From contig JADHSZ010000004.1 in assembly GCA_016776635.1 (NCBI GenBank), positions 16,777 through 80,776 of the forward strand: a DNA stretch of 64,000 nucleotides, read 5' to 3'. The notes beneath the pieces were generated by a model. It ran no database searches. It had not been told where the DNA came from and worked only from the letters and a program-made list of their open reading frames with translations. Source of the stretch: Alphaproteobacteria bacterium (GTDB lineage Bacteria; Pseudomonadota; Alphaproteobacteria; UBA11136). A program made the translations under genes and the position numbers. Of this stretch, positions 2,877 through 62,985 are shown piece by piece; position 1 is the stretch's first letter; every line of letters begins with the position of its first letter.

Positions 2877-2882
2877 AAAAAG

Positions 2883-6711
<3,829 letters not shown>

Positions 6712-33836: not shown

Positions 33837-33971
33837 TAGCGGTAATGTGCGGAAAAGATTGGCGTCCCCTAGGGGAGGGGATGTCAAAACCATAAAAACC
33901 GCAGAAAACTGCGATTCTCTCCGAAGCTCCATAAGCAATTGCTACGGAATTGCTACAGTATGGAGCCACCA

Positions 33972-35603: not shown

Positions 35604-35708
35604 CATATTGATATTTTTTCTGGTTTGGAGGGAGGCCTTTTTTGGCCATCTATTCCTTCAGACCCACAGTTCGATAAACCAAAATTGATTTTTCAAAATG
35701 GATAACAA

Positions 35709-37037: not shown

Positions 37038-37340
37038 TTTCAATATATTAAGATTATTTATGTAAAAACCAAGTAAACCTTGATGCCCTACATTATATAA
37101 TACATACCCTGTTACTAGAACATTTTTTACTTATTAAGTGTTTCACCAGTGTTTATAAGCATCATCAGAATAGAGATTTGTCGTATTGCAAATACGATTT
37201 TCCTAGGAAAACTTGGGTTATCAGGCCTACCCTTTTTAAAGGAAAAAGTATGATCTAAGACCAGATAATACGGTTATGACATGGGAACAGTCATGCTCCA
37301 ATGGCGCAGCAATAATCGTAAATTCTGAGGGATAATAATT

Positions 37341-37928
37341 ATGCAACTCAACATAGACGAAAACAAATTGGGGATTGTCGCGGGAATATTATTCTGGATT
37401 ATTGTTGCCCCCATGGCATGGGACAGTGTCTCGCCAAGCTATGAATGTCCCCAAAATCCTCCCTGTCAATCATACGAGATGGTAGAGGTAGAGGATACGG
37501 GCAGCAAAATTACAGTAGTATTATTTACTACAGCCGCAGCTTTCGGAATATATGAGATGTTCCCGCTGGTGTTTTTTCAATCGATTGGCTGGGTCTTTTC
37601 GATGTTTTCTTCCCGACCTCCAGATGACATGACCCCTGGCTTTGGTGATTGTTATTATGATCCCACTATCGCCTCTGAATTGTTGGGTTTTAAGGAACCT
37701 GCTTTGATTAAACTTTTAGAGAAGGGAACACTCCGCGGCAGAAAAGACAGTTCCGGCAACTGGGAAGTTGATTTGGTTGAGGGCACATCCAATGTTGCAA
37801 TCGCCGCATACAAAATGGATCAAAGTGAGTCTGCCATTTATGAAAAATTGGAGTCTGGAGATTTACAGGGATATAAATTACCAAATGGAAAATGGCGAAT
37901 TATAAATAATTCCAATCCCAAATTATGA
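37341..37928 (+). CDS. Island hypothetical membrane-anchored protein with C-terminal excisionase/MerR-like HTH
   Basis: N-terminal transmembrane helix. C-terminal ASELLGFKEPALIKLLEKGTLRGRK...GYKLPNGKWRI resembles excisionase-family DNA-binding domains. Confidence 0.4.
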   Translation: MQLNIDENKLGIVAGILFWIIVAPMAWDSVSPSYECPQNPPCQSYEMVEVEDTGSKITVVLFTTAAAFGIYEMFPLVFFQSIGWVFSMFSSRPPDDMTPGFGDCYYDPTIASELLGFKEPALIKLLEKGTLRGRKDSSGNWEVDLVEGTSNVAIAAYKMDQSESAIYEKLESGDLQGYKLPNGKWRIINNSNPKL

Positions 37929-38242
37929 CAAACCAAGCATTAGGAAAGAATAGACCCATAAAATGCCTCCAGGATGCCCCCAGATTGATGGCATCTATTC
38001 TTATGGGGCATAGCAGTCTAGGCCTTCTGATGCGAGTCCTCGGCGCTCTGACAGCGATGCGCCCCTATTCAAGGTCAGAGCTAGGACATATCTATATCTG
38101 CTGTTGACCATAAGCGAACATTGAGGGCGGTTTGAGTAGCCCTTAACAAGATTTTCACCTCAAAGAACTTGCCTTTATTTCTGGATAAATCATCCGAAAT
38201 CCGTCTTAAAATGAACCGCCGGTAAGACGAGGAGGAAAATCA

Positions 38243-39526
38243 ATGCTTTTTCGCATCATAATACTTTCAATTTTTTTTCTACCCCCCTTTTGGGGATCAA
38301 ATGTTTTAGCCGCTGACACAGAAAAAATTTTTGAAGAGGCCGCCAATTACACGGTGAAAATCAATGCAAGAATACAGGATGCTTTTATCGAGGATGAGCC
38401 AGGCTCAACCGAAGGAGCAGGGTTTGTTGTCGATATAGACCGTGGGTGGATCATCACAAACGCCCACATAGTTGGATGGTCCCCCTCTAAAGTAACAGTA
38501 ACTTTCATTGATGGATCAACGGCAAAAGCAAGAAAAATTTATGTTGATCCCTCTACACACAGAGACATAGCCGTATTAGCCATAAACAAAAACTCTGCCC
38601 CTGACGATTTGGTTGCAGCACCATTGGACTGTGATCAATGGCCAGCTACAGGACATCCTGTTGGGGCCTATGGCCATCCGTATGGATTTGAATACACGGG
38701 AACCCAGGGAATCATTTCAGGGATATCAGAAGAAGACTCAAGCTTATTGGTGGATGCTGCCATTAATCCTGGTAATTCAGGAGGCCCACTTCTCAGTTTA
38801 GATACAGGAAAAGTAGTCGGAATTAACACCTCATCTGTCGATGATGAATATGATCAAAATACAAATTTTTCTGATCCAATATTTTTTTCCTGTGACATCC
38901 TCGATCTCCTAAGGGACGGCATTGACCCTTCACCACCAAAATTTCCCGTAATGTTCCTGGGACAGTCCCTGATCGTAGCCAAAAACAATCTCTCAAAGGA
39001 GGCATTGGACCTGAAACCTGACGATGAAATCATGGGGGTAAAAGGGTATGACGGCTCAATATATAATTTGTCTGATTTGTTCTATGCCCTTCGTGGCAAC
39101 TATGAAAATTTCACCCTGATAATCAGAAGAGGAGACAATGAAATAGAAATTCCTGGCCATCTTCAGCCGGAACCCCTTGTTATCGATCGCAAGGGGATAA
39201 AATTTTCAGGAATACTCATTGGTAGAGGGCCAATCTTCGACAACTCGGAAATCATTAAAGCAGAAAAATTACCGGTCATACACAAGGTTGCTCCGGGTTC
39301 TCTGGCTGAAGAGAATGGCTTCCAAGCCGACAATATCATCTTAGCTGTTGATGGCAGACAATATACGAACCTTCAAATTTTGTATGATTATCTAGATAAA
39401 AGGCTTAAAGAAAAACAGTCTGTAACATTTAAAATGGTAACTAAATCATCGTCAGATTGGGCCTTTTTTGACTATGGTAAAAGTGAATTGGAGATTGAAA
39501 ATCTAGAAATGATTTCAGCCAGGTAA
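38243..39526 (+). CDS. Secreted trypsin-like (S1/DegP-like) serine protease
   Basis: Signal peptide. Catalytic triad context TNAHIV, RDIAVL, GNSGGPLL. C-terminal PDZ-like region. Confidence 0.7.
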   Translation: MLFRIIILSIFFLPPFWGSNVLAADTEKIFEEAANYTVKINARIQDAFIEDEPGSTEGAGFVVDIDRGWIITNAHIVGWSPSKVTVTFIDGSTAKARKIYVDPSTHRDIAVLAINKNSAPDDLVAAPLDCDQWPATGHPVGAYGHPYGFEYTGTQGIISGISEEDSSLLVDAAINPGNSGGPLLSLDTGKVVGINTSSVDDEYDQNTNFSDPIFFSCDILDLLRDGIDPSPPKFPVMFLGQSLIVAKNNLSKEALDLKPDDEIMGVKGYDGSIYNLSDLFYALRGNYENFTLIIRRGDNEIEIPGHLQPEPLVIDRKGIKFSGILIGRGPIFDNSEIIKAEKLPVIHKVAPGSLAEENGFQADNIILAVDGRQYTNLQILYDYLDKRLKEKQSVTFKMVTKSSSDWAFFDYGKSELEIENLEMISAR

Positions 39527-39545
39527 GGAAGTTCATTGAAAACCG

Positions 39546-40193
39546 TTACTTTGAACCCTTCTTCTTGGTTGGACGTGATTTTGGCTTGGCCTTTCTAACC
39601 TTCTGAGGCTTGGCCTTTTTCGTAGTCGTTTTTCCTTTGTCCGCTGATTTAGTGCCTTCTTTTTGTTTAGTCCTTTTACCCTTACCGGCTGATTTCGTGC
39701 CAACCTTTTTCTTTATTTTTTTACCTTTTTCGCTCGCTTTCCCGGAAGTTTTTTTCCTGGTCTGTTTGCCTTTTTTTGGCACCGGTTTTTGTTTTCTGGT
39801 GGCTATGATTTCAGGTTCCTGTTCAGGTGAACCTGTATCCGGACCTGGAAGAAACATCATTTCCGTCGGCATGCTTATGCCTGAACTAAATAAATACGCT
39901 AATTCCTGATATTCAACACTAGATTTGTCCGCATGTCTTGGTTGCAGCTCTTCCTTTAGCTGCCTCAGCCAGGCCTTTCCGTTCATTTTAACGAGAAGAT
40001 TAAACCCATCACTTAAGTCCATCGCATAGCTCGTCTCCATCCGTTTTTGAGGGACGGACGCTTTCATTAATTCCCGTTGGGTGGCCATTGACATGATTAC
40101 ATGAAAGCCCTGTGGGGCAGCGCTTGGTTCACTCTCAACAAAAATATTAGCCATTATCAAATCTTTAAAAAAAATGCCCCCACCGCCACCCAT
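39546..40193 (-). CDS. Island hypothetical protein with histone-H1-like Lys-rich C-terminal tail
   Basis: 215 aa. The last roughly 80 residues are KKGKQTRKKTSGK...KKAKPQKVRKAKPKSRPTKKKGSK. Confidence 0.4.
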   Translation of the reverse strand: MGGGGGIFFKDLIMANIFVESEPSAAPQGFHVIMSMATQRELMKASVPQKRMETSYAMDLSDGFNLLVKMNGKAWLRQLKEELQPRHADKSSVEYQELAYLFSSGISMPTEMMFLPGPDTGSPEQEPEIIATRKQKPVPKKGKQTRKKTSGKASEKGKKIKKKVGTKSAGKGKRTKQKEGTKSADKGKTTTKKAKPQKVRKAKPKSRPTKKKGSK

Positions 40194-40532
40194 TCAACAT
40201 ATCTGATGTCAGAAAATGGAAGGAGGAGACTTCCACTTGAGCATTTAAAAAAAATTATATTTCTGACAATTCGATGATCTAACCCCGGCACAGGAGGAGA
40301 CTGAAGGCATGTTCCATCAGTTGATATGAGAAAAAGGTAATAATTCTTATCAATGTTCATTGCAGGTTGTTCCTATGGGCTGGACATTTTGTATTCTTGG
40401 CTTTGCTGATCTAGAGATATTTATCCAATCCGGTGTAGCAAACTCAGCAATTCGGCCTGCTTTGTTCTGGCTTGATCTCTTTGTGTTTTATGGCCCACCA
40501 CCATAAGATGAATATCCTCTGGGAGGAAAGCA

Positions 40533-40766
40533 ATGGAAGCAATTAAGGATTTTTTTGGATACCTGTTTGGGTCAGCAGTAGGCTTAGCACTAATGGGTTC
40601 GATGTCTCTTGGGATGGCTTATTGGGTCTGGATGGCCATTCAATTAGGCAGCTTTCTCATGTTCGCAGCACTGTTTTTCCCACCCACGATGATCATCGCA
40701 GCACCCACAGGATTATACTCTTTTATATTTGGAGCGCCTGAGTGGGTGATAAATATGTTCGGTTGA
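40533..40766 (+). CDS. Small hydrophobic protein (77 aa, two transmembrane helices)
   Basis: ORF preceded by GGGAGGAAAG. Hydrophobic throughout. Confidence 0.25.
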   Translation: MEAIKDFFGYLFGSAVGLALMGSMSLGMAYWVWMAIQLGSFLMFAALFFPPTMIIAAPTGLYSFIFGAPEWVINMFG

Positions 40767-41048
40767 TACCACTAGACTCAGCGACTAGACCCTAGACCGA
40801 GCAGCAAACGCCTACCTCAAAATTTATTATAGAAATTTCTGAGCCACCTTTCCTTCTCATAAAGAGGCCACCCCTGCCCCCCTGGTGCCCCCTTCTTCGG
40901 CTTATCCCTGTGAAAAAACTTCCATAGCAAAGAGGCCCCCCGCACCGTTAAGAAATTACTACAGAATTGCTACGGTAAGGTGTAATATAGGGGTGCTTTT
41001 GGGCTTCGGAAAGCCGCAGAAAACTGCATAAAACAGCCGTTTTAGTAG

Positions 41049-41124
41049 TGGCGTCCCCTAGGGGATTCGAACCCCTGTTGCCGGCGTGAGAGGCCGGTGT
41101 CCTAGGCCTCTAGACGAAGGGGAC
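41049..41124 (-). tRNA. tRNA-Glu (anticodon CUC)
   Basis: Reverse complement GTCCCCTTCGTCTAGAGGCCTAGGACACCGGCCTCTCACGCCGGCAACAGGGGTTCGAATCCCCTAGGGGACGCCA folds as a cloverleaf and is nearly identical to E. coli tRNA-Glu apart from the anticodon loop (CTCTCAC). CCA is encoded. Confidence 0.85.
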
Positions 41125-43218: not shown

Positions 43219-44607
43219 TTAAGGCGCGGAGCCGAGCACGAATTCCCCTATGGAGGTTTCGGTCCAGGGGCTGATGCCGGTGGCCTCGGCGAAGAGACGG
43301 GAATCCCCGGTGCCGGTGCCGCAGGGCGCGAGCCCCATATCGGCGGCCACCAGATACAACACCTCGGTCACCACCCCGGCATTGGTGAGGGTGGTACGAT
43401 AGGCCATGCCCTGGTATTTCCAGGCGAAGCGCGGCATACGGGTGGTAATCACGATTATCATGTCGGGGAACGGCCCCTCGGCCATACCCATGGCGGCTGA
43501 CGCGCGCCTGACGATTTTATCCACCACCTTTTCCGTCCCCTCCAGAGCCACCAGGGCATGGGCGAGACCGTCATAATGATAGAAAAGGGGTTCCATATCC
43601 GCCACCCGGCGCACCGCAATATAAAACTCCAACTCGTTGATAGAGCCGCCCGCGGGATAGGGCCGGGACAAAACATCCTGCAGAGAGCTTTCCTTCACCT
43701 CCTTGATCCGCGCCACGCGATAGAGAAATTCCCCAAGGGTTTCCAAATTCATGGGTTCGGGGCCGGATTCGCGCACCGACTTGCGGTTCTCCATGACGGA
43801 AAGCAGCGGATGGCTGTCGATGCTGCCGTCCTCGAGGTTGGGCTTGGGCAGGTCTATCACCGTCCCCGGCATGGTGGGTTTGAGTGCCGGGGCCGAGGGA
43901 AACGCATCCTTGAAACGGTAGGTGCCGCCGACAATGTCGGTTTCCGTATTGTTGCGGCTCCATTCATGAATCAGCCGGTCCTGAAATTCCCAACAGCGCC
44001 GGTCCAGGTCTTCTTCCTCCTCCGCCGGCTCCAGGAACCCCGCATAAAAGAGCAGTTCCCCCGGCCCACCGGCGGAAACGGGCTTTCCGGCCTCACCACC
44101 GCCATCGAAAAGAAATCCCGAGAAAGCCTTCGCCGCCCCAGGAAGAACCGTGATGCGGCAGGGGGTTTCGCCCGATTGCAGGACCATGTCTTCCCCGTCG
44201 CGGCGCAGATAGGCGAAGCGGGAAAAGCGCCATGCGTCTTTGGGAAGTCCTCCTGAATAAAAGGCGAAGGAATTGGAGGGGCTGACGGCCACCGCCAGGT
44301 CCTTGCCGTCGCGGCGCAGGACCAGTTCCAGCAGGCGCGGACGGCACATACGTTCGAGATAATAGGACAGTGCCTTTGCGGATTCCTCTCCGCCATCACC
44401 ATCTCCGGCGGCGAGTTTCCTTAAATGCTCAAGGGTTGCGCCATCACCGAACAGAGCCAGCAACGCCTCGGCAATACCTTCGGACTCGGGCTTGAAGCGC
44501 AGGGTTTTCCAGTCCGGAACCGTAATGGCGATATGATCGCCATCGCGCGCCACGGAGTCCACCTCCGCGCAGAACCGCCAGATAACTTCCGTTTTGGCCG
44601 ATGCCAT
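43219..44607 (-). CDS. SagB/ThcOx-type dehydrogenase (nitroreductase fold) with long N-terminal extension
   Basis: C-terminal approximately 200 aa: MENRKSVRES...PYPAGGSINELEFYIAVRRV...APCGTGTGDS fits the FMN-dependent SagB-type dehydrogenase pattern. Confidence 0.65.
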   Translation of the reverse strand: MASAKTEVIWRFCAEVDSVARDGDHIAITVPDWKTLRFKPESEGIAEALLALFGDGATLEHLRKLAAGDGDGGEESAKALSYYLERMCRPRLLELVLRRDGKDLAVAVSPSNSFAFYSGGLPKDAWRFSRFAYLRRDGEDMVLQSGETPCRITVLPGAAKAFSGFLFDGGGEAGKPVSAGGPGELLFYAGFLEPAEEEEDLDRRCWEFQDRLIHEWSRNNTETDIVGGTYRFKDAFPSAPALKPTMPGTVIDLPKPNLEDGSIDSHPLLSVMENRKSVRESGPEPMNLETLGEFLYRVARIKEVKESSLQDVLSRPYPAGGSINELEFYIAVRRVADMEPLFYHYDGLAHALVALEGTEKVVDKIVRRASAAMGMAEGPFPDMIIVITTRMPRFAWKYQGMAYRTTLTNAGVVTEVLYLVAADMGLAPCGTGTGDSRLFAEATGISPWTETSIGEFVLGSAP

Positions 44608-44625
44608 GCCGTCACCTCATCACTT

Positions 44626-45681
44626 TTAAAGAAAGAAGGGGATAGGATTGAGTTCGGATTCCTTGTTCGGCTTGTCGAGCCAGCCCATCTTCACCGGCAC
44701 GTCGTAAAGACGGCCCGGCGCGAACCGCGCCCAGAAATGCCGTATGCCGGGCACCACCACCCGGGCGCAGGAAAAATCAACTTCCGGCCGGGAGTGATCG
44801 AACACCAGCATTTCGAGTCCCTGTTCCTCGAATTTCCCGCGCGCGTAGTCCACATCATCGGCCAGGGTCGCGCCGTTAAAACTGGGCATATCCCCGAGGG
44901 CCACGGCGGGAAGCGCATCGGGCTTGAGATAAGTCTGGTTCTCCAGCGTGGCGGTGCGGAACCAGTCGGCAATGGCCCCCTCGGGCTCGGTATCCCCTTC
45001 CTCGGCTTCGAGGAATCCGGTTTCCAGTTCCAGCATCTGGTTCAATTCACTGTAAGCCCGGTTCAAGGCCACCAGGGGGTCGAGATGGGCGCCCAGCCCG
45101 AACATAATGCTCTTCCCGTCACGATGGCCCACGGCGATAATCACCGGAATGCCGAAATCCTGGGTCAGGTCGAGGGCGTAAAAGGCAAGCCCCAACTCTC
45201 CGTAATGGCGCTCCATGCGCCGCAGGAACGGCAACTCCACCGAAGAGGCGTCCTCGGTGAGCACCGGGCGTTCGCGGATTTCCAGTTCACTGGTGACCTC
45301 CCAGCGGTTGCCGGGCAGCGGGCGGGCGGCGAACTGGCGGGTGAAGCGGGCCTCGTGGGTGACCAAGCCGAGGCCGCCCAGGAGGTCGATCCCGAACCAC
45401 TCGCCGCCTTCCTTGGCGTGCCAGCGGTACCAGGCCTCGAACAGGGCGAACTGATCTCTGCGCAACACCCAGCGCACGGAAATCCGGCTCGGCACGCTCG
45501 TGAACCGACGCCGCTGCCGCGCCGGTCCCGCTTCCATCTCGGTGCGCAGAATGGCCTCGCCGGGATGGACGCCGTAGCCCTCGATGGAGGGCAACGGCAG
45601 GGTGGCGGGCCAGGAGATAGACACGGGGGATCCTTGTATTCCATGGACATCAATCCATATATGAGCTACAATGTAGCCCAT
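44626..45681 (-). CDS. Chimeric ORF: gpM-like phage minor tail protein (N-terminal approximately 140 aa) fused in frame to the C-terminal half of a YcaO-domain protein (truncated YcaO)
   Basis: N-terminus WPATLPLP...AKEGGEWFGIDLL...RWEVTSELEIRE is shared with repeats at 46235-46540 and 47151-47385. C-terminus has YcaO-like DLTQDFGIPVIIAV, GLGAHLDPLVALNRAYSELNQ, ARVVVPGIRHFWARF and terminal NPIPFF. Confidence 0.5.
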   Translation of the reverse strand: MGYIVAHIWIDVHGIQGSPVSISWPATLPLPSIEGYGVHPGEAILRTEMEAGPARQRRRFTSVPSRISVRWVLRRDQFALFEAWYRWHAKEGGEWFGIDLLGGLGLVTHEARFTRQFAARPLPGNRWEVTSELEIRERPVLTEDASSVELPFLRRMERHYGELGLAFYALDLTQDFGIPVIIAVGHRDGKSIMFGLGAHLDPLVALNRAYSELNQMLELETGFLEAEEGDTEPEGAIADWFRTATLENQTYLKPDALPAVALGDMPSFNGATLADDVDYARGKFEEQGLEMLVFDHSRPEVDFSCARVVVPGIRHFWARFAPGRLYDVPVKMGWLDKPNKESELNPIPFFL

Positions 45682-55521: not shown

Positions 55522-57672
55522 TTAGACACCCGGATTCTTGTGCATACCGCGCCAGTCGATAGCCTTGGCCCCGAAGTCGAGGCGGGCCTTGACCTCGACG
55601 CCGTCCACGTCGAAGCCCATGCGGGTCTCGATGTAGACGCCCTCCTGGCCTTCGAGATAGGCGTATTCGATGGTGTCGATTTGGGCCGGGCTGGCGAACA
55701 GGTACCAGGGCACGGCGCCTGACGCCGGGTCGAGCCGGGGCTCGGCGATCACCGCCAGGGAGCGGATGGATTGCGGCACCACGTCGCCGCTCTTGGCCGG
55801 GACCAGGTTCTGGGCGATGATCTGTTCGGCGGTTAGCTCCAACGTCGAGGGCACCACCAGGTAAGCGGGCCGGATGTTGAGGATGGTCTTGCCGTCCAGC
55901 CCCACCTGCTTGGCCATGGCGGCGCGGGCGACGCCCAGGTTGGCGACGTCGAGGACTGCGCCGGCGGCGGCCAAGTTCTTGTGGCTGGCGTGGAACAGGG
56001 CCTTGGTGTCGCCCATGGCCGGGTTGGCGGTGATGATCCCCCAGACCACGTCGCTCTCCAGGGTGGCGGCGGAAGTCCCGAACAGCGAGGGCACACGGGT
56101 GAAGGCGTCGAGGTCGTCGTTGATGATCACTTGGCGGGTGATGCCGATGACCTTTCCGTAGGTCTCGACCCTGTAGCTTTCCTTGCCCTCGCCCATGGTG
56201 CCGCGCTTGAACTCGCCGTTCTCGGCCACCTTCTCCAGCTGTGGGGCCTCGCCCAGTTGCAGACGGCGAATATCCTTGAAGTCGCTGGCGGACGCCCTCC
56301 GGGCGATGGCCGGAAAAGTCCGCGGCGCCGCCTGATAGGCGTCCCGCAAGGTCTTGTTGGTAACGGCGGCGAGGATCTCCGGGAAGTCGCTGGTCGAATG
56401 CAGCGCCCGCGTCGCGATCTCGTCGCGGCTGAGCCCGCGCACCCGCGTCCCGTCGGTCTCAAGGAAGGCGCGGGCCAGTTCGAGCAGGGAATAGCCCCGC
56501 CATTCACGCGCCGGCTCGGGCAGGTCGAAACGGCTGGGATCGAAGCGATGCAGCAACGCCGCCTCCACCGCGTCCCGCCGGGTCTGGCGTTCATCCATGC
56601 CACCCATGGTGATCTGGGATCGGGTCTCGGTCTGCTCGTCGCGCTCGGCGACGGCGTCGATCAGGGTCTTGCGGGCCTCGTCCAATGGCGCGCCGCGCTC
56701 GACCAGTCCCTCGGCGACGCTGTGCTCGACCCCCAGCTTGCGGGCGGTCTCGTAGATGCCGGCGGCGCGGCCGCGTTCCTCGGCGACGGCGCACTGGGCT
56801 TCCGCTCTCGCCTCGATGTTGGCCTCCGCCTTCGGCTCGGCATCGGCCTGAGTGACCGCCTTCTTGCCGGCGGCAGCATCCACAGCCGCGCGCTGCTCGG
56901 GCTCCATCTCGGCGGCGGTCTCCGAGCGTTGGTCCAGAACGGGAGCTTCTTCGGAAACGGCATCGGTATCGGCAACGGAACCCGACCGCTTCTCTTCGAG
57001 GGGCAGTTCGGCTTCCGGGGTGTCTTGAGGTTCCATGGTGTTTTCTCCTTCAAGGGATAAAGATTCGGGGTTTTGCGATCTGGTGATCAGGCGGCAGGGT
57101 TGTGGGTCCAAAGCGGCGGAGCGGAAACCGGCGTCCGGATCGGCGCCGATGGGAACGGCGGAGAGTTCCGCCGGGGTCCAGTCGATGGCCCGCCAGACCG
57201 GGACCTTGCCTTCCTCTTGCGCGATTTCGTAGGCGCGAACGCTGTAGCCGACCGAGACGTTGCGGATGATCCCGGCACGCACGTCCCGCCATACCGGCTC
57301 CACGTCGTCGCGCTCGCTGAAGCGCACGAGAGCCTTGCCGACCGGAAAATCACCTTCCTCGACCCAGGCCCGCTCGACGACGCCGATGACGCCGTCCAGA
57401 GACCAGGCGCCGTGGGTGTCGAGCAATGGCGCGCCGCCGTTGAGGCGCGACAGGTCCACATGCTCGGGGTCCAGGGACAGGAACTCCTCGTAGGCCTCGC
57501 CGGTCATGCGGTCCCGGCGCGGGACACGGGCCCCGGACGACCAGACAACCTCGACGGTGCGCGCCTCCTCGTCCACGCTTTCCGGCAGCATGCTGGCCAT
57601 CCGAGTCTGCATGGGCAGGCTCACTTGGTTACGTTCGGGGCTCCGCTCAGGAGCCGTCGCTGTTTGGGCCAT
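55522..57672 (-). CDS. Prohead protease (HK97/S78-like), scaffold-like linker and major capsid protein fusion
   Basis: 716 aa. N-terminal protease-like region, Ala/Glu-rich middle, C-terminal approximately 300 aa with capsid-like features. Confidence 0.65.
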   Translation of the reverse strand: MAQTATAPERSPERNQVSLPMQTRMASMLPESVDEEARTVEVVWSSGARVPRRDRMTGEAYEEFLSLDPEHVDLSRLNGGAPLLDTHGAWSLDGVIGVVERAWVEEGDFPVGKALVRFSERDDVEPVWRDVRAGIIRNVSVGYSVRAYEIAQEEGKVPVWRAIDWTPAELSAVPIGADPDAGFRSAALDPQPCRLITRSQNPESLSLEGENTMEPQDTPEAELPLEEKRSGSVADTDAVSEEAPVLDQRSETAAEMEPEQRAAVDAAAGKKAVTQADAEPKAEANIEARAEAQCAVAEERGRAAGIYETARKLGVEHSVAEGLVERGAPLDEARKTLIDAVAERDEQTETRSQITMGGMDERQTRRDAVEAALLHRFDPSRFDLPEPAREWRGYSLLELARAFLETDGTRVRGLSRDEIATRALHSTSDFPEILAAVTNKTLRDAYQAAPRTFPAIARRASASDFKDIRRLQLGEAPQLEKVAENGEFKRGTMGEGKESYRVETYGKVIGITRQVIINDDLDAFTRVPSLFGTSAATLESDVVWGIITANPAMGDTKALFHASHKNLAAAGAVLDVANLGVARAAMAKQVGLDGKTILNIRPAYLVVPSTLELTAEQIIAQNLVPAKSGDVVPQSIRSLAVIAEPRLDPASGAVPWYLFASPAQIDTIEYAYLEGQEGVYIETRMGFDVDGVEVKARLDFGAKAIDWRGMHKNPGV

Positions 57673-59146
57673 TCTCTTCTCCTTCCTGATAGATTTTCGC
57701 CGCGCCCGTCTGGGTCGCCCGGCGCGGATCGCTGTCGAGCACCAGGCCCAACTCGTCGAGCCTGGCGTTGGTGTCGGCGATCTCGGCCAGCACGTCGGAC
57801 GGGTCGTAGCCGTTGCGCGCGATGGCTTCCTTCAGGGTCATGAAGCCGGAGCGCACGGACATGACGTCGGCCTTGGCGTCCTTGAGCGGGTCCACCGCCT
57901 CGAACCGGGGCGCCGTCCACTCGACGCCGAAGTCGCCGGCGGGCAGCCCGTCCACGGCCTGGGCCACCTCCACGAAGCGCCGCCACACCGGGTTGCAGAG
58001 ACCGGGGATCAGCACCTGTCCCTGCAGGGCCTCCATGCGGCGGCGGAACTCGATCAGCCCGGCCCGGATGCTGGAATAGTTGACCTGGCTGAGATCGCCG
58101 GTAAGCAGTTCGTAGGTGAGCCCCAGCCCCGAGGCGATGGCGTGGAGCTGGAAGCGCATGTATTCCGGATAGCCGCCGCTGGCCGCCGGGGCGGCGAAGC
58201 GCACGTCCTTGCCCGCCGGCAGGTATTCGATCATGCCGGGCTCGAAAGTCTCGACCCGGCGGCCGGCCTCGTCCTCGCCGACCTCGCCCAGGGTCTCGCC
58301 GTCGTCGGCGTCGAGCACGAAGGCGGCGAAGCAGGCCTCGATTTTCTTGCGCACCAGTTCGGCATCATCGTATTCGTCCAGATCCCGCATCTTGATGATG
58401 ACCGGGGCGAACCAGGGAACGCCGCGCTCCTGACCGGGGCGCAGGCGCTCGAACACATGGCAGACGTCGGCGGCAGGCACCCTCTTGCTTTGCAAAGAGC
58501 CCCGGCGGAACGCAGCGACCTCGCCGGGATGGACCGGGTACAGCCAGTACGCCACGCGGCGCCCCAGCCGGTCGAACTCGATCCCCTGGTGAATAAAGCC
58601 GCTTCCCTTGGCCTCGCCGGAGCGCAGGGTATCGAGATGGTCGGCCTCCAGCACCTGGAGTTGCAGAGGCACCGCCAGCCCGTCAATGGCGCGGCGGGGC
58701 CGCATTCTGACCAGACACTCGCCGCTTTCCACCATGGCCCGGGAAACCAGCGCCTGCAGGCCATGGAAGTCAGTGCGCCCGTCGGCGTCGCATTGTGCCG
58801 TGAACCGGGTCCACAGCTTGTCGGCCGCATCGTTAAGGGCGGCGTCGCCGGATCGGGCGCGGGCCTTGAGGCCGCTGCCCACCAGGTTGCCGACCAGGGC
58901 GTTCACCCCCTTGGCGGCATAGGGGTTGTTTCGCACCAGGTCCCGCGAGCGGTCCCGGAGCCGGGGCAGTGCGGCGGCGATCTCGGCGCATGCGCCGCTG
59001 CCGGGCGTCCTCCAGCCTTCGGTCCGCCGGCCTAGCTTGGCCCCCTCGTAGCCCCGGCGCAGGATATTCATCGCCACGCGGGCGCGGGCGCGGCGAAGGC
59101 CGGCGCGGGGCGAGAAGAACCCCACCGTCTGGTCAAGCCAATTCAT
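57647..59146 (-). CDS. Phage portal protein (lambda gpB family)
   Basis: Start MNWLDQTVGFF with AAGGGG RBS. Follows gpW as in lambda. Confidence 0.8.
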   Translation of the reverse strand: MNWLDQTVGFFSPRAGLRRARARVAMNILRRGYEGAKLGRRTEGWRTPGSGACAEIAAALPRLRDRSRDLVRNNPYAAKGVNALVGNLVGSGLKARARSGDAALNDAADKLWTRFTAQCDADGRTDFHGLQALVSRAMVESGECLVRMRPRRAIDGLAVPLQLQVLEADHLDTLRSGEAKGSGFIHQGIEFDRLGRRVAYWLYPVHPGEVAAFRRGSLQSKRVPAADVCHVFERLRPGQERGVPWFAPVIIKMRDLDEYDDAELVRKKIEACFAAFVLDADDGETLGEVGEDEAGRRVETFEPGMIEYLPAGKDVRFAAPAASGGYPEYMRFQLHAIASGLGLTYELLTGDLSQVNYSSIRAGLIEFRRRMEALQGQVLIPGLCNPVWRRFVEVAQAVDGLPAGDFGVEWTAPRFEAVDPLKDAKADVMSVRSGFMTLKEAIARNGYDPSDVLAEIADTNARLDELGLVLDSDPRRATQTGAAKIYQEGEENGPNSDGS

Positions 59147-59151
59147 CGGAT

Positions 59152-59355
59152 TCACCCCTTGCGGAACGACGCCAGGCTGCTCGACGGCCGGGGCTTGCCG
59201 ATTGCTGTGGCGATCCCGCGTTCGACCACCCGGATACGCCGGATCAGGTCGGCTTCCGAGCCGTATTCCACCGTCCGTCCGTCGTAGGAGACACGGAGCG
59301 TGCCGGAGGCATAGGCCGCTTTCAGGGCGTCGAGTTCCGTTTGCGTCCAAGTCAT
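59152..59355 (-). CDS. Head-to-tail joining protein gpW-like
   Basis: 67 aa. MTWTQTELDALKAAYASGTLRVSYDGRTVEYGSEADLIRRI. Located between terminase and portal. Confidence 0.6.
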   Translation of the reverse strand: MTWTQTELDALKAAYASGTLRVSYDGRTVEYGSEADLIRRIRVVERGIATAIGKPRPSSSLASFRKG

Positions 59356-59395
59356 TTTTTGTCCCTGTCCGGGCTCCGCTCGTCCTCGCCTCTTG

Positions 59396-62300
59396 TCATT
59401 TGAGCCAGTTTCCTCTGCGGTTGCCGAGCCAGTCGCCGCGATGTCCTGACGCCGGGCGCGAGGGGCGCGTCTTCGACCCGGATGGGCGTTGTTGCTTGGT
59501 CTTGGGTGCCGGATCGCCGCCCAGGGAATCCACGAACTTGCGCCAGTGGCGTTCCTCGAAACGATCCAGGCCGACCACGGCCACCGCCGCCCGGGCGTAG
59601 ACGTAGCAATCCAGCGCCTCGTTGCGTTCGCGCAGCTTGCGCCATTCGCGAACGGCATAGCCGCGCCTGTTCTTGGTGGTCACCAGTTGCTCGGAGCACA
59701 GTTGTTTGCAGTACTCGCCATCGACCTTGGGCAGGTGGACATAACCGGCTGGATAAATCTCACCGGCTTTCAATTCTTCGTCGGTCGGGCGTTCCTTGCG
59801 CAGGTTGTTGAATAATTCCAACTTAGCGATGCCGCCGGCCACCGGGCGCACCTTGACGCCGCGCCGGAGCCGCTTGCCTCCCGCCGTGATGTCGACGGCG
59901 GTCGGCATGCCGACCAGGGCGGCGCCCCGTTCCACGCCCTTGATGGCCATGACCAGTCCAGCGTGTTGGCGGCGCGCCCAGCTATAGACCTCCTGGGTTG
60001 CGTAACCGGAATCGACGGCCAAACGCTTGAGCGGCATCTGGACGCCGGAGGCATGGCTCCAGGTCTCCGACAGCATCTCTGTCAGTTCTTTCCAGACCTC
60101 CTCGCGAGATGTGTCGCCGTCGATCACCCGGTGCTCAATTAGCCACGACTCCTTGTCTCTTCCCCAGGCCCAGATGGAAACCTCGATACGGTCTTTCTGA
60201 ATATCGACGCCGGCGGTGAGAAGCAGGCCGCCCTCGGGCACCGTGCCCTCACGGTAATCCTCGCGGCGGTCATAAAGGCGCTGCCAGTCGGGCGCCTCTC
60301 CGACTTCTTCCCAGGTCTCGCCCAGGTCCGTGTTCTTCACCGACTTGACCGCCGCGTCGGAACCCTGCGCCGCCAGCCAGGCCCCGGCGATCTGCTTCCA
60401 CGACCGCCAACCCACCGGGCTGTACAGGCTGGATAGATGGAACCCCGCTGTCTTGCCGTTGTCGTTCTCCGGTTTGGCCGTCGCCCGCCACTCGCCGTTC
60501 TCCAGCATCCAGGTCTTGTGATGCTCCTCGATGCGGGCCTGGCAGTGTTCGCATTCGTAAGATGCGGTTTCCGGCTTGCCCTTCTCCCATTTCAACTGCT
60601 CGAACTTGAGCCACTGGTGTTTACGGCAGACCGGACAGGGCACGAAGTAACGGCGCTGGTCGGACGCCTCGTACTCGCGCTCGATCCGGGACGCCCCACG
60701 GATGGTCGGCGTCGAGACGATCAGGATTTTGCGCCGCGAGAACGTTCGGGTCCTGGCCTCGGCCAGGGCGACGGGATCGCCTTCGCCGTCAATGTCGCCG
60801 GGATAGCCGTCCACTTCGTCCAAAAACAGGTAGCGCACCGGCATGGAACGCAAACCGACGGCCGAGTTGGCGCCGGTCATCACCAGGACGCCTCCGGGGA
60901 ACTCCTTGGCCAGCACCGTGTTGCCCGCGTCCCTGGAACGCGCCGGCTTGACGAGCTTGCGCAACGCCGCGCTCTCCTCGATCAGCGGGTCGATCCGCTG
61001 CTTGGAGTTGCGCTTGGCCATCTCGACCGTGGGCAGCACCGCCAGCATGGGCCCCGGCGCGTGATGGATGACGTATCCAATCCAGTTGTTGCCGGCTTCG
61101 GTGTTATGGGTCGGTATCCAGCCTTTTCCGCAAAGGTAAAGGTGATTTGGCGAGTCGACCGAGATGCAGCGAACCGGAACACTCTTTACGGGTCTGATGG
61201 CGACTATCCGGCGACGACGGCTTCTGGAAGGACGTCCAGCCCGGATCAAACGCATACGCTCGACCTTTCGGGACAGCTTGAACATGGGTTCTTCCTGGTA
61301 GGCCGTCCAGGTAACCCGCCAGCCGGCCAGTGTCTCGCATATCTTATTGCCGCCCGGGAACATTCTTCGTTTTGACGGAGTCCGGTGAACGCTCGGCTTG
61401 TAACCAAGGCTGCGAAGCAATTCCGCCATGGAGTCGGCTAGGCCAGCATTCGTGTTGCCGAATTCACACCGCTTGCCATCCGAGGAAATAAATCCATCGG
61501 AATCCATCAACCCACGGACAAGCTCAAGCCTTTGCTCTCTGCTTGCCCGCATGTATTGGGGAGGAACATGTTTGTTATCGAGCAAATCGAGCATGAGAAG
61601 CCGAACGGTGAATCTGGATCGCCCCTTGGGCGTCACCGGTCGATTGGGGTTTTGATCCAACCTGTAAGTTGGATCGATAATGATGTTGGCGCATTTCCCC
61701 TTGCGCCACTTCGGCAGCCTAAATTCGGCAACAACCCCACAGGAGCGGAGATGCTCGGCGGCTTCCGTGTCGTCCTCATGGACACTGATGTGGTTCATGA
61801 TGGCGTTTCCGTCCCCGAGCCAAAACCCGAGAACATAGGGATGGATGATCAGGTCCTGCTCGGGTAAATCCAAGGGGTCGCAACAATCCACGGCATATCG
61901 ATAGCGTTTGCTTTTTCCGATACGGACGCGCCAGATCATCTCCTCGGTCCGGAGTACCTTCGCGACGGGCTTGTCGTTGGTGAAATCCATCACCGGCCAG
62001 CGGTGTGCGCCATCGCAAACAACCCGTTCTCCATCATCGAAGGTGATTTCAAAGCATTGCCGCCCGGTCATCACCTCGGACACGCTGGTCACTCTGCAGA
62101 ATCGCCCCTTTTCGTCAAAAAGCGTATCGCCGACCATGAGCGTCCCCATGGTTTTCCAGCCAACCGCCGTAGGAATTGGCGTGTCGACGGCCAGCGGACC
62201 GCCGATCTGGGCGCCCTTCATCAGGACCACCCGCTCGACCTTCGAGGCCGGCGCGAGACAGTCCATGATCTCCTTGAGATACGGCGTGCGGCCGGTGCGC

Positions 62301-62431
62301 CACGGCCCCGGCTCCGAGGCCGCGCGGCCCGACAGCCGCCGGTGCCGGTCGGCCCACTCGGAGACCGTCAGCGTTGGGTCCGGGCGCAGGCCCTGATCGA
62401 AGGCCTCGCCGTAGATCTCAGCCGCCCTCAT
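59396..62431 (-). CDS. Terminase large subunit (lambda gpA family) interrupted by an intein
   Basis: 1011 aa. The N-terminal P-loop VVLMKGAQIGG is immediately followed by Hint block LAVDTPIPT...CDGAHRW, LAGLIDADG motifs LGFWLGDGN and LVRGLMDSDGFI, and ends ...IPTHN/T. The C-terminal roughly 560 aa is the gpA nuclease/ATPase with CPVC..CEHC zinc finger. Confidence 0.8.
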   Translation of the reverse strand: MRAAEIYGEAFDQGLRPDPTLTVSEWADRHRRLSGRAASEPGPWRTGRTPYLKEIMDCLAPASKVERVVLMKGAQIGGPLAVDTPIPTAVGWKTMGTLMVGDTLFDEKGRFCRVTSVSEVMTGRQCFEITFDDGERVVCDGAHRWPVMDFTNDKPVAKVLRTEEMIWRVRIGKSKRYRYAVDCCDPLDLPEQDLIIHPYVLGFWLGDGNAIMNHISVHEDDTEAAEHLRSCGVVAEFRLPKWRKGKCANIIIDPTYRLDQNPNRPVTPKGRSRFTVRLLMLDLLDNKHVPPQYMRASREQRLELVRGLMDSDGFISSDGKRCEFGNTNAGLADSMAELLRSLGYKPSVHRTPSKRRMFPGGNKICETLAGWRVTWTAYQEEPMFKLSRKVERMRLIRAGRPSRSRRRRIVAIRPVKSVPVRCISVDSPNHLYLCGKGWIPTHNTEAGNNWIGYVIHHAPGPMLAVLPTVEMAKRNSKQRIDPLIEESAALRKLVKPARSRDAGNTVLAKEFPGGVLVMTGANSAVGLRSMPVRYLFLDEVDGYPGDIDGEGDPVALAEARTRTFSRRKILIVSTPTIRGASRIEREYEASDQRRYFVPCPVCRKHQWLKFEQLKWEKGKPETASYECEHCQARIEEHHKTWMLENGEWRATAKPENDNGKTAGFHLSSLYSPVGWRSWKQIAGAWLAAQGSDAAVKSVKNTDLGETWEEVGEAPDWQRLYDRREDYREGTVPEGGLLLTAGVDIQKDRIEVSIWAWGRDKESWLIEHRVIDGDTSREEVWKELTEMLSETWSHASGVQMPLKRLAVDSGYATQEVYSWARRQHAGLVMAIKGVERGAALVGMPTAVDITAGGKRLRRGVKVRPVAGGIAKLELFNNLRKERPTDEELKAGEIYPAGYVHLPKVDGEYCKQLCSEQLVTTKNRRGYAVREWRKLRERNEALDCYVYARAAVAVVGLDRFEERHWRKFVDSLGGDPAPKTKQQRPSGSKTRPSRPASGHRGDWLGNRRGNWLK
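61103..62197 (-). mobile_element. Intein with LAGLIDADG homing endonuclease inside the terminase large subunit (about residues 79-443, boundaries approximate)
   Basis: Hint N-terminal block A/B after the Walker A motif. Two LAGLIDADG motifs. Terminal His-Asn followed by Thr. Confidence 0.7.
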
Positions 62432-62985
62432 GGTGAGCCTGTCGAACCACCGGAATCACCTGACAGTTCCTCCAGCGCCATCCGGATCTCGGTGGCCAGC
62501 AATTCGTGGACCCTTGCCGGATCGTTTTCGGTGGCCAGCATGGCGGCGAGGCGCTCAGGGATATTCAACAACGCATCCCGGACCACTCGCGCCTTGTTGA
62601 ACGCGGCGACCTTTACGTCGTCGGCGTCTACGTATTTACCGGCCTCGACCTTGGCCTTGATCTCAAGAAGCTTCGCCCTCTCGACCTCGCTCTTGATGCG
62701 GGTCTTAAGCAGCAGGGTCGGCAGGTCGCCCCCCGCCCGCGGCAGCACCGGAACGTCCGGAACCGCGGCGGGCGCCTCGCCCCGCCTCTCGGGCCGGACC
62801 GGCTCTCTGATCGCCGCCAGGGCGGCGTCGGCCTGATCCGTATCCACCTTGCGGTCCGTGAGCTTGATGACGCCCTTGGCCACCATCTGGCCGACGTACT
62901 GGCGGGACACCCCGCGAAGACGTGCGTATTCGGCCTGACTGACGAGCATTCCTGTTACGCGTTCCCATGGTCGGACCGCCCTCAA
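62428..62985 (-). CDS. Terminase small subunit (HTH DNA-binding)
   Basis: Probable start MLVSQAEYARLRGVSRQYVGQMVAKG (HTH). Overlaps the terminase large start by 4 nt. Confidence 0.55.
   Translation of the reverse strand: MRAVRPWERVTGMLVSQAEYARLRGVSRQYVGQMVAKGVIKLTDRKVDTDQADAALAAIREPVRPERRGEAPAAVPDVPVLPRAGGDLPTLLLKTRIKSEVERAKLLEIKAKVEAGKYVDADDVKVAAFNKARVVRDALLNIPERLAAMLATENDPARVHELLATEIRMALEELSGDSGGSTGSP

Follow-up and report, generated by a model that had tools for sequence, protein, structure and literature searches.

The terminase large subunit gene of a lambda-like alphaproteobacterial prophage is interrupted by an in-frame insert in the Walker A loop of this gpA-type terminase. The insert is very probably a class 3 intein that is still intact and contains a homing endonuclease with two LAGLIDADG motifs. 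This assignment draws on homology and on a predicted structure, and the intein is probably also active and mobile. The prophage lies in the window analysed here, that is, the whole 64,000-nucleotide stretch of DNA, and the genes relevant to the host protein are the following:

57647-59350, minus strand, portal gene (PHROG 21, 3.3e-111), downstream of the terminase.
59152-59358, minus strand, gpW-like head-tail adaptor (PHROG 2545, 2.9e-21), downstream.
59396..62431, minus strand, precursor gene of the gpA-type terminase large subunit (ORF call and Pfam; 1011 aa plus stop).
62428..62985, minus strand, terminase small subunit gene (PHROG 57, 5.5e-36), directly upstream.

The precursor matched both GpA domains in Pfam (GpA_ATPase, 3.7e-97, in two stretches; GpA_nuclease, 1.3e-96), which together with the small terminase, the gpW-like adaptor and the lambda-type portal as neighbours identifies the host protein as a gpA-type (lambda-like) terminase. 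The stop of the small subunit gene overlaps the start of the large subunit gene, and the packaging, head and tail module around the terminase is complete; the neighbourhood was also viewed on a near-identical contig (P0254). An identical protein is present at NCBI (MBL6934114.1), deposited as "phage terminase large subunit family protein".

The precursor is divided as follows:

62198..62431, minus strand, N-extein (aa 1-78), ending with the first half of a deviant Walker A motif, KGAQIGG (aa 72-78; 62198-62218).
61103..62197, minus strand, intein of 365 aa, Pro1 to Asn365 (exact gap against intein-free homologues, phmmer search of the PDB, AF2/Foldseek).
59396..61102, minus strand, C-extein (aa 444-1011 plus stop), whose first residue is Thr+1 (61100-61102).

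The first-pass annotation had placed a LAGLIDADG intein at 61103-62197, with no strand given, following KGAQIGG and ending in HN|T, and had proposed that intein-free gpA homologues would fix the boundaries. They did so to the base. Alignment with 11 intein-free gpA homologues (68-93% identical) showed a single gap of exactly aa 79-443, and across the site these homologues read MKGAQ[ITV]G[GLCA]|[TS]E[AC]GNNW. The gap corresponds to 365 in-frame codons with no stop (PLAVDTPIPT...GWIPTHN) between KGAQIGG and TEAGNNW, so that Pro1 of the intein is Pro79 of the terminase (62195-62197), Asn365 is Asn443 (61103-61105) and follows His364, and Thr+1 is Thr444. Since the two ends of the intein share no residue, the boundary cannot slide. 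Gly78 belongs to the extein in this alignment, and an intein starting at Gly78 was rejected; the earlier description of the first residue as neither Cys nor Ser was correct, and of the two residues it offered, Gly or Pro, Pro was the right one. The predicted spliced terminase has 646 aa, with the ligated-extein junction peptide ...MKGAQIGGTEAGNNWIGY..., the freed intein would be of 41 kDa, and in an intein-less allele (L001, at about nt 6220) the empty site reads ...ATGAAGGGGGCTCAGATCGGCGGC|ACCGAATGCGGCAACAACTGG....

That the insert interrupts Walker A, as had been suggested, was borne out by two comparisons. The N-terminal 250 aa of the terminase are 30% identical to lambda gpA (E 9e-26); in this alignment KGAQIGG falls on lambda K76-Y82 and the insertion site on Y82|S83, within K76-S83 (KSARVGYS), which we take to be the lambda Walker A motif. 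We found no paper for this assignment (K76, KSARVGYS) in our literature searches, and it is supported by the lambda gpA alignment itself and by the canonical GPARTGK|T in the gpA of Acidovorax phage ACF1. In the Pfam comparison, the second stretch of the GpA_ATPase match resumes at terminase aa 443 and profile position 40, and the insertion occupies the same GpA_ATPase position as that in the canonical GPARTGK|..|T of ACF1 gpA. In the P-loop the intein separates Gly78 from the Walker A Thr, one residue before Ser/Thr, and Thr+1 doubles as the predicted last splicing nucleophile and the Walker A Ser/Thr residue.

Within the intein, the splicing (HINT) domain comes in two parts:

61883..62197, minus strand, N-terminal part (intein aa 1-105; homology to class 3 DnaB-1 inteins).
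62159-62197, minus strand, block A, PLAVDTPIPTAVG, in the N-terminal part.
61991-62032, minus strand, block B, GERVVCDGAHRWPV, with Asp62, His65 (62003-62005) and Trp67 (61997-61999).
61103..61216, minus strand, C-terminal part (intein aa 328-365).
61136-61189, minus strand, block F, VKSVPVRCISVDSPNHLY, with the predicted class 3 nucleophile Cys344 (61166-61168) within VPVRCISVD.
61103-61111, minus strand, block G, Thr363-His364-Asn365, within PTHN.

Cys48 is also located in the N-terminal HINT part, and the intein retains both Cys344 and Cys48.

By phmmer search of the PDB, the ends of the intein matched the class 3 DnaB-1 mini-inteins 6RIX, 6RIY and 6BS8 with E-values from 2.5e-28 to 3e-27, a sequence similarity far beyond chance, whereas the class 1 intein gp41-1 matched at 1.5e-4 only. 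Ranked by similarity, the three best solved relatives are all class 3, in agreement with a place among the class 3 inteins. In the alignments, residues 2-70 pair with the same numbers in the Mch and Msm DnaB-1 inteins, and residues 331-365 with 111-145 of MchDnaB-1. Cys344 falls on the cysteine of the class 3 triplet (Cys124 of MchDnaB-1, Cys118 of Msm DnaBi1), and His65 and Trp67 of GAHRW on AAHQW of MchDnaB-1 and on His65/Trp67 of Msm DnaBi1, for which Asp62, His65, Trp67, Cys118, Thr137, His138 and Asn139 have been described (PMC6195587). Conservation followed the same residues: in a set of 91 complete homologous inteins, D62, H65, W67, C344 and N365 are each invariant (91/91), T363, H364 and C48 are each present in 90/91, and the +1 residue is Ser or Thr in all 91. 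Position 1 is far more variable, with Ala in 76, Pro in 6, Gly in 5, Cys in 2, and Arg and Ser in one each.

Class 3 inteins, defined in 2009/2010 (Tori et al. 2010), combine a non-nucleophilic residue 1 with a Trp(B:12)-Cys(F:4)-Thr(G:5) triplet and Ser/Thr at +1 (PMC2807308, PMC3196547). They have been reported to be monophyletic, and large subunits of phage terminases are among their hosts, with insertion mostly at P-loops (PMC2807308, PMC3196547). The intein described here has Pro1, His at B:10, Trp at B:12, Cys at F:4, Thr at G:5 and Thr+1, which gives the "non-canonical class" of the first-pass annotation its name, class 3, with the same triplet, Pro1 and Thr+1 as the prototype. An exact in-frame insertion, blocks A, B, F and G on a HINT fold, and His-Asn followed by Thr+1 mark the insert as an intein in the first place.

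Support from curated profiles, whose absence the earlier proposal had named as a refutation, was uneven. The endonuclease was recognised (Pfam LAGLIDADG_3, 1.2e-7, 32.4 bits against a cut-off of 22.5), but no Hint or intein model in Pfam matched at E<=10, either with the whole protein or with the insert alone, and the NCBIfam model intein_Cterm reached 13.6 bits, under its cut-off of 15.6. Because these libraries respond poorly to the splicing domains of class 3, we do not take the missing matches as evidence against an intein, and its identity stands on direct homology to solved class 3 inteins and on the fold prediction. An intein-family HMM run against all six frames found no second intein in the window.

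The AF2 model of the intein was of high confidence (pLDDT 94.7, pTM 0.92). Its best Foldseek match was PI-SceI, a class 1 intein (E 1.5e-19, TM 0.70); 6BS8, entitled "class 3 DnaB intein", was found with a target TM of 0.80-0.89, and I-DmoI, PI-PfuI, gp41-1, Prp8 inteins and hedgehog Hh-C were among the further matches. Between the two splicing parts lies the predicted endonuclease:

61217..61882, minus strand, LAGLIDADG homing-endonuclease domain (intein aa ~106-327; Pfam LAGLIDADG_3, PI-SceI match).
61808-61837, minus strand, LAGLIDADG motif 1, YVLGFWLGDG, with Asp129.
61493-61522, minus strand, LAGLIDADG motif 2, LVRGLMDSDG, with Asp234.

The middle of the intein also matches PI-SceI by sequence (E 4e-6 to 1.2e-5), with the catalytic Asp129 and Asp234 opposite chain positions 218 and 326 of that protein; among the homologous inteins they are kept in 89/91 and 91/91, respectively. 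Both motifs, both acidic residues and the alpha-beta-beta-alpha-beta-beta-alpha fold of a two-motif LAGLIDADG endonuclease were found, in agreement with the two motifs noted in the first reading.

Splicing itself, the block F intermediate and endonuclease cleavage we infer by analogy, and the steps that follow are drawn by homology to experimentally dissected class 3 inteins. The precursor would be translated with its ATP-binding loop split, and because of this it should be inactive in packaging. Cys344 (F:4) would attack the Gly78-Pro79 bond, helped by Asp62, His65 and Trp67, to give a thioester branched intermediate, from which the N-extein would be transferred to the side chain of Thr444 (+1). 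Cyclisation of Asn443 would then free the intein, and an O-to-N acyl shift would yield KGAQIGG-TEAGNNW with the P-loop restored. The endonuclease, in turn, would cleave terminase alleles that lack the intein, at the conserved ...CAGATCGGCGG|ACCGAA..., and repair from an intein-bearing copy would insert the element (homing), during co-infection or in encounters between phage and prophage.

Even where alleles are near-identical, the intein is present in some and absent from others. Within the 90%-identity cluster of the terminase there are both 648-aa intein-free and 1011-aa intein-bearing alleles, and two further independent assemblies contain the same intein. Identities of intein and extein are discordant: the closest exteins (86-93% identical) lack the intein, and exteins that are only 57-76% identical host the closest inteins (at most 70% identical). 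The composition of the intein is foreign relative to the exteins, with 56.1% GC (GC3 65.5%) against 64-72% GC (GC3 81.5-92%). We compared the DNA of the spliced gene with the intein-free allele L001 in 60-nt windows and saw no co-conversion tract beside the insertion site, where identity was 0.90-0.92, compared with 0.90 overall. A scan of genome contigs with a 7-sequence intein alignment as query identified a Pro1 intein at the same gpA site (MKGAQxG[GA]|PLA...THN|TE.GNNW) in about 40 species-representative genomes; we found no description of this Pro1/Gly-1 clade in the literature searched. The wider intein family comprises about 18,000 cluster representatives.

We considered three other readings of the insert. 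The intein could be class 3 by descent and by now a splicing- or homing-dead relic in a decaying prophage, with a non-functional terminase. Several related copies are indeed decayed, with the reading frame shifted or stopped within the intein or shortly after it (P0001, P0003, P0004, P0006, P0009, L019, L033, L060), for which reason an intact intein sequence is not proof of activity, and there is a published case of a class 3-like intein, Arth_1007, that is inactive and lies in the remnant of a prophage (PMC3196547). The copy in the window, however, has no stop or frameshift, keeps all catalytic residues of the splicing and endonuclease domains, recurs identically in the two further assemblies and is flanked by the complete packaging, head and tail module, so that we regard a relic as improbable. 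A different splicing route appears considerably less probable still, be it that of class 1, with the N-terminal boundary set wrongly, or that of class 2 (KlbA-like, in which the +1 residue attacks the N-terminal junction directly). Position 1 alone cannot separate class 2 from class 3, and a few relatives in the family, as well as the ACF1 gpA intein, do start with Cys or Ser. Against class 1, which has Cys, Ser or Thr at position 1, stand a boundary fixed by the intein-free homologues with Pro as residue 1, and nearest solved relatives that are class 3 (~1e-28) and not class 1 (gp41-1, 1.5e-4). Class 2 inteins have been reported in KlbA only and lack the triplet (PMC3196547), whereas here the host is a terminase and the Trp-Cys-Thr triplet is complete and invariant in the family (Thr in 90/91).

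Least credible of all, and given next to no weight, is a permanent, non-splicing terminase domain, for instance a domesticated nuclease or DNA-binding module. Such a domain would agree with the silence of the curated Hint profiles and with the presence of the insert in many terminases. It is difficult to reconcile with an insert that breaks the P-loop by parting Gly78 from the Walker A Thr, and which orthologues as much as 93% identical do without while remaining functional. A structural insert would have no need of splicing residues such as the terminal Asn and the +1 Thr, yet these are conserved, and homologous inteins occur in unrelated hosts (DnaB, dCTP deaminase, PD-(D/E)XK nucleases and other terminase families). 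The reading we retain is that of a class 3 intein, intact and with its endonuclease.

A more speculative idea concerns regulation. In Msm DnaBi1, Cys48 and the catalytic Cys form a reversible disulfide under H2O2, which pauses splicing. By analogy, splicing of the gpA intein might act as a conditional, redox-gated switch on DNA packaging, which we consider unlikely. If it were so, the packaging ATPase would be assembled only in reducing conditions, and the Pro1/Gly-1 gpA clade would be a widespread post-translational regulator of phage maturation and not purely selfish.

The intein belongs to a well-described and very common kind; publications from 2010-2016 onwards cover its class, its mechanism, its association with phages and its preference for P-loops of terminases. 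Its value lies mainly in annotation and as a resource, and it opens no new biological question. Since curated intein profiles miss class 3 splicing domains, terminases of this kind appear to have 365 residues too many, or gene callers break them up. The present case is a clean, intact example of a Pro1 class 3 lineage that is widespread at this site in gpA, with matched intein-free alleles more than 90% identical. It could be of use for studying how inteins home among prophages in nature, or as a further class 3 scaffold for protein engineering.

Finally, we compared the intein with known systems. VMA1-derived PI-SceI shares the two-domain architecture and both aligned catalytic Asp residues, but its host is a eukaryotic V-ATPase (entry 9cop) and its sequence is only ~15% identical. 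The closest solved relatives, Msm DnaBi1 (6BS8) and MchDnaB-1 (6RIX/6RIY; DnaB-b site), are colinear with it over 2-70 and 331-365, number Cys48, Asp62, His65 and Trp67 identically, and are also inserted in a P-loop directly before Ser/Thr; unlike it, they are mini-inteins without an endonuclease, with Ala1, Ser+1 and a cellular helicase as host.

Among phages, actinobacteriophage terminase inteins likewise occupy ATPase-domain/P-loop sites (TerL1-a/b), the "classic" one being between Lys and Thr of Walker A. For terminase P-loop inteins, both splicing and endonuclease cleavage of alleles that lack the intein have been demonstrated (PMC5050341). Class 3 members are known at the terminase sites TerL1-c/-e, for example in Gaia gp2, some with LAGLIDADG endonucleases (Kelley et al. 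2016, PMC5050341; Gosselin et al. 2025 preprint); the Gaia gp2 intein is 35.8% identical to ours over the full length. The actinobacteriophage exteins, however, are Terminase_1 or Terminase_6, the only terminase families with inteins in a mycobacteriophage survey (PMC5050341), whereas the present extein, of the gpA (lambda) family, has Gly at -1 and a deviant form of Walker A (KGAQIGG|T). The ACF1 gpA intein (MZ547449.1) shares the extein family and the GpA_ATPase position (40/41), but is ~35% identical, starts with Cys1 and follows the canonical GPARTGK. Much closer are the Pro1 inteins at the gpA site in genomes, which share PLA(L/V)DTP...PTHN|TE.GNNW and are 44-70% identical; carriers include Caldovatus, Rubritepida flocculans, Gemmobacter nectariphilus, Ramlibacter aurantiacus and Endozoicomonas. 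In the records seen, the intein is annotated neither in ACF1 nor in these genomes, and the gene is called "terminase large subunit" or "phage terminase large subunit family protein". The class 3 prototype, the DnaB intein of mycobacteriophage Bethlehem (MP-Be DnaB), splices (PMC2807308) and resembles the gpA intein in Pro1, Thr+1, the triplet, the C-terminal His-Asn, its phage origin and its size (341 aa, compared with 365 aa here; PMC2807308). Compared by description, the two differ in their host, DnaB helicase for the prototype and gpA terminase here, and in the -1 residue, Gln in the former and Gly in the latter.

The first-pass annotation had placed about 365 extra residues at 61103–62197, after KGAQIGG in a gpA-type terminase and ending HN|T. 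The landmarks of this gene are the following:

59396–62431, minus strand: ORF of the terminase large subunit precursor (1011 aa), the sole long ORF across the flagged interval
residues 72–78 of the precursor, minus strand: KGAQIGG
62195–62197, minus strand: codon of Pro79
61103–61105, minus strand: codon of Asn443
61100–61102, minus strand: codon of Thr444

The interval comprises 365 codons (PLAVDTPIPT...GWIPTHN) with zero stops. Pfam searches of the precursor returned GpA_ATPase (3.7e-97) and GpA_nuclease (1.3e-96), the former in two stretches, of which the second restarts at residue 443 (profile position 40), with a LAGLIDADG_3 match between them. When the conceptually spliced 646-aa extein was used as a query, thousands of ~650-aa gpA terminases were retrieved, the top ones being 86–91% identical over their full length and devoid of the insert. 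In agreement with the proposed interval, alignment of the precursor and two other intein-bearing alleles with 11 intein-free homologues, which read MKGAQ[ITV]G[GLCA]|[TS]E[AC]GNNW across the site, placed the gap precisely at residues 79–443, and the junction cannot slide because Gly78 differs from Asn443 and Pro79 from Thr444. Of the two starting residues suggested earlier (G or P), the alignment fixes Pro as residue 1 and assigns Gly78 to the extein; the non-Cys/Ser, non-nucleophilic start is retained. The precursor is identical to NCBI MBL6934114.1 (exact sequence look-up; MAG, Alphaproteobacteria bacterium), named in its record just 'phage terminase large subunit family protein', and its 90%-identity cluster mixes 1011-aa and 648-aa alleles. 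In an independent assembly (L003, a 136.8-kb contig), the terminase gene differs from that of the window at just 5 nt, all within 29 nt of the N-extein (window 62255–62283, codons 50–59), and the 1095-nt intein is identical.

The suspected position in the Walker A region was also confirmed. The spliced N-terminal region aligned with lambda gpA (30% identity, E 9e-26), and KGAQIGG|T fell on K76-SARVGY82|S83, which we take to be lambda's deviant Walker A. Independent support came from more distant gpA homologues, in which a canonical motif precedes a homologous intein located at this column: one reads KSAAQVGK|A...THN|S, and the gpA of the isolated Acidovorax phage ACF1 reads GPARTGK|C...THN|T, its Pfam GpA_ATPase match restarting at profile position 41. 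The site is the 'classic' P-loop insertion known from the TerL1-a (PMC5050341) and DnaB-b (PMC6195587) inteins, directly ahead of the Ser/Thr of Walker A.

As for the nature of the insert, its top three matches among all PDB sequences (phmmer, E 2.5e-28 to 3e-27) were mycobacterial DnaB-1 mini-inteins from M. chimaera (6RIX, 6RIY) and M. smegmatis (6BS8), all class 3 according to the structures' authors and each matching in two colinear pieces (intein residues 2–70 and ~330–365). In the same search, residues 120–285 matched the PI-SceI endonuclease domain. An AlphaFold2 model built from a 46-sequence alignment (mean pLDDT 94.7, pTM 0.92) retrieved from the PDB with Foldseek PI-SceI (E 1.5e-19, TM 0.70), the TliVMA and PI-PfuI inteins, the 'class 3 DnaB intein from Mycobacterium smegmatis' (target TM 0.80–0.89), gp41-1, I-DmoI and hedgehog Hh-C. 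These sequence and fold matches therefore show that the insert consists of a splicing (HINT) domain interrupted by a LAGLIDADG endonuclease with two motifs. The LAGLIDADG aspartates of the insert, Asp129 and Asp234, correspond in alignment to positions 218 and 326 of the PI-SceI chain, the catalytic aspartates of that enzyme.

Absence of profile support for the Hint and LAGLIDADG blocks had been named as grounds for rejecting an intein. LAGLIDADG was supported (Pfam LAGLIDADG_3); Hint was not, as neither a Hint nor an intein model came up in Pfam at E<=10 and NCBIfam intein_Cterm scored 13.6 bits (cut-off 15.6). Curated profile libraries detect this splicing domain poorly, and its rejection on these grounds would be a false negative.

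Some relatives are broken. In Endozoicomonas sp. Mp262 (CP092490.1; L004, 7300–7440), loss of 1 nt in ACCCCAGCCCCATG breaks the gene, leaving ORFs of 461 and 522 aa. Two homologous proteins (P0004, P0009) break within ~10–20 codons after the intein, in C/G-run-rich HAPGP codons; further broken copies were noted among proteins (P0001, P0006) and loci (L019, L033, L060). These breaks could be homopolymer sequencing errors or reflect decaying prophages, and they lead gene callers to report truncated 'terminases'. A Pro1 relative in Streptosporangium sp. CA-135522 (L081, 3001–4014) ends ...PTHN|YPLH, with Tyr rather than Ser/Thr at +1 and flanks that do not appear terminase-like; this copy may have decayed or be unable to splice.

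In base composition, the window intein (GC 56.1%, GC3 65.5%) is foreign to its N-extein (72%/92%) and C-extein (64%/81.5%). The nearest exteins lack it, and the nearest inteins (<=70% identity) reside in exteins just 57–76% identical, with discordant intein/extein identities of 63/57 (L024) and 59/76 (L032). Scanning one genome per species yielded 515 loci that encode relatives; of the 80 loci retained, ~40 had a Pro1 intein at precisely MKGAQxG[GA]|PLA..THN|TE.GNNW, in Alpha-, Beta- and Gammaproteobacteria, Bryobacteraceae, Nitrospira, Gemmataceae and Leptospirillia, including cultured Caldovatus, Rubritepida, Gemmobacter, Ruegeria and Ramlibacter. Ramlibacter aurantiacus (NZ_JAEQNA010000008.1) carries two such inteins ~118 kb apart (L030, L058; 58–59% identical to the window intein), and therefore two intein-bearing prophages. 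A phage collection yielded 728 records with relatives (<60% identity), chiefly in terminase genes. Stenotrophomonas phage SOVA965 has a Pro1 member after GKGNGK in a TerL_ATPase-type terminase. When 1.84 billion cluster representatives were searched exhaustively, 17,975 matched at E<=1e-3, and 3,853 at the stricter E<=1e-30. Hosts in the first protein search included gpA and other terminase families, DnaB, dCTP deaminase and PD-(D/E)XK nucleases. Among the closest full-length relatives (P0042–P0120; 36–40% identity), dCTP deaminases, at RLEGK|A...THN|SSLGRL, make up a large share, beside PD-(D/E)XK nucleases (Gly1), DnaB and other terminases. Some library proteins show 3–6 matching stretches, suggesting multi-intein hosts; a search covering the whole window found no second intein there. 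This kind of element is already known and very common, and its copies are unannotated in the records seen.

The gene order (small terminase, intein-bearing terminase, gpW-like adaptor, portal, protease-capsid fusion, then others as far as the tape measure) forms a lambda-like packaging/head module and fits a prophage carried by an alphaproteobacterial MAG. Upstream of their small terminase, related prophages (L003, 288–8253; L001, an intein-free allele, 2220–5315) encode toxin-antitoxin pairs (AbiEi/AbiEii, HigB and RelE) together with as many as three DNA methyltransferases, of which one is fused to ParB_N. Other features of the window are:

33939–35603, plus strand: DUF6538 and tyrosine-integrase ORF, at the start of a low-GC island
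41049–41124, minus strand: tRNA-Glu(CTC), near which the island ends
43219–44607, minus strand: nitroreductase/ThcOx-like oxidase
44626–45681, minus strand: YcaO cyclodehydratase (Pfam 1e-29)

The island (33939–41124; 42–48% GC between window positions ~34 and ~40 kb vs ~60% in the remaining window) looks like a second integrated element beside the prophage. The YcaO and ThcOx-like genes, adjacent to each other and located between the tape-measure gene and tRNA-Glu, are a RiPP-type (thiazole/oxazole-modifying) pair, for which no precursor peptide was identified (43219–45681).

Class 3 inteins have a non-nucleophilic residue 1, a non-contiguous Trp(B:12)-Cys(F:4)-Thr(G:5) triplet, His B:10 and Ser/Thr at +1 (PMC2807308, PMC3196547). 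All these features were found here: Pro1, Asp62-x-x-His65-x-Trp67, Cys344 in VPVRCISVD, Thr363-His364-Asn365 and Thr+1. Among 91 complete homologous inteins from the first protein search, the Trp, Cys, His65 and Asn are invariant (91/91 each) and the Thr nearly so (90/91); +1 is Ser in 56 and Thr in 35, -1 is the P-loop Lys in 81, and position 1 is Ala (76), Pro (6), Gly (5), Cys (2), Arg (1) or Ser (1). By homology, the precursor would be translated with a split P-loop, and Cys344, assisted by Asp62, His65 and Trp67, would attack the Gly78-Pro79 bond to form a block F thioester branch. The N-extein would pass to Thr444, Asn443 would cyclise and an acyl shift would rebuild KGAQIGGTEAGNNW; the endonuclease would target the conserved intein-less site, resulting in homing.

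Taken together, sequence and structural model identify the element as a class 3 intein, intact and bearing a LAGLIDADG endonuclease, in the P-loop of a gpA terminase, so that the first-pass observation and its reading both hold. Given the full feature set and the Pro1 prototype, the 'non-canonical class' suspected earlier is thus the known class 3. That prototype and founding Pro1 example, the mycobacteriophage Bethlehem DnaB intein, shares Pro1 with the window intein, is followed by Thr+1 and splices (PMC2807308). Asp62, His65 and Trp67 are numbered identically in Msm DnaBi1, and Cys344 aligns with the triplet cysteines of MchDnaB-1 (residue 124) and Msm DnaBi1 (Cys118). The Cys48/Cys344 pair is also conserved; its equivalent is a redox toggle in Msm DnaBi1 (PMC6195587), and by analogy one may speculate that it gates terminase maturation.
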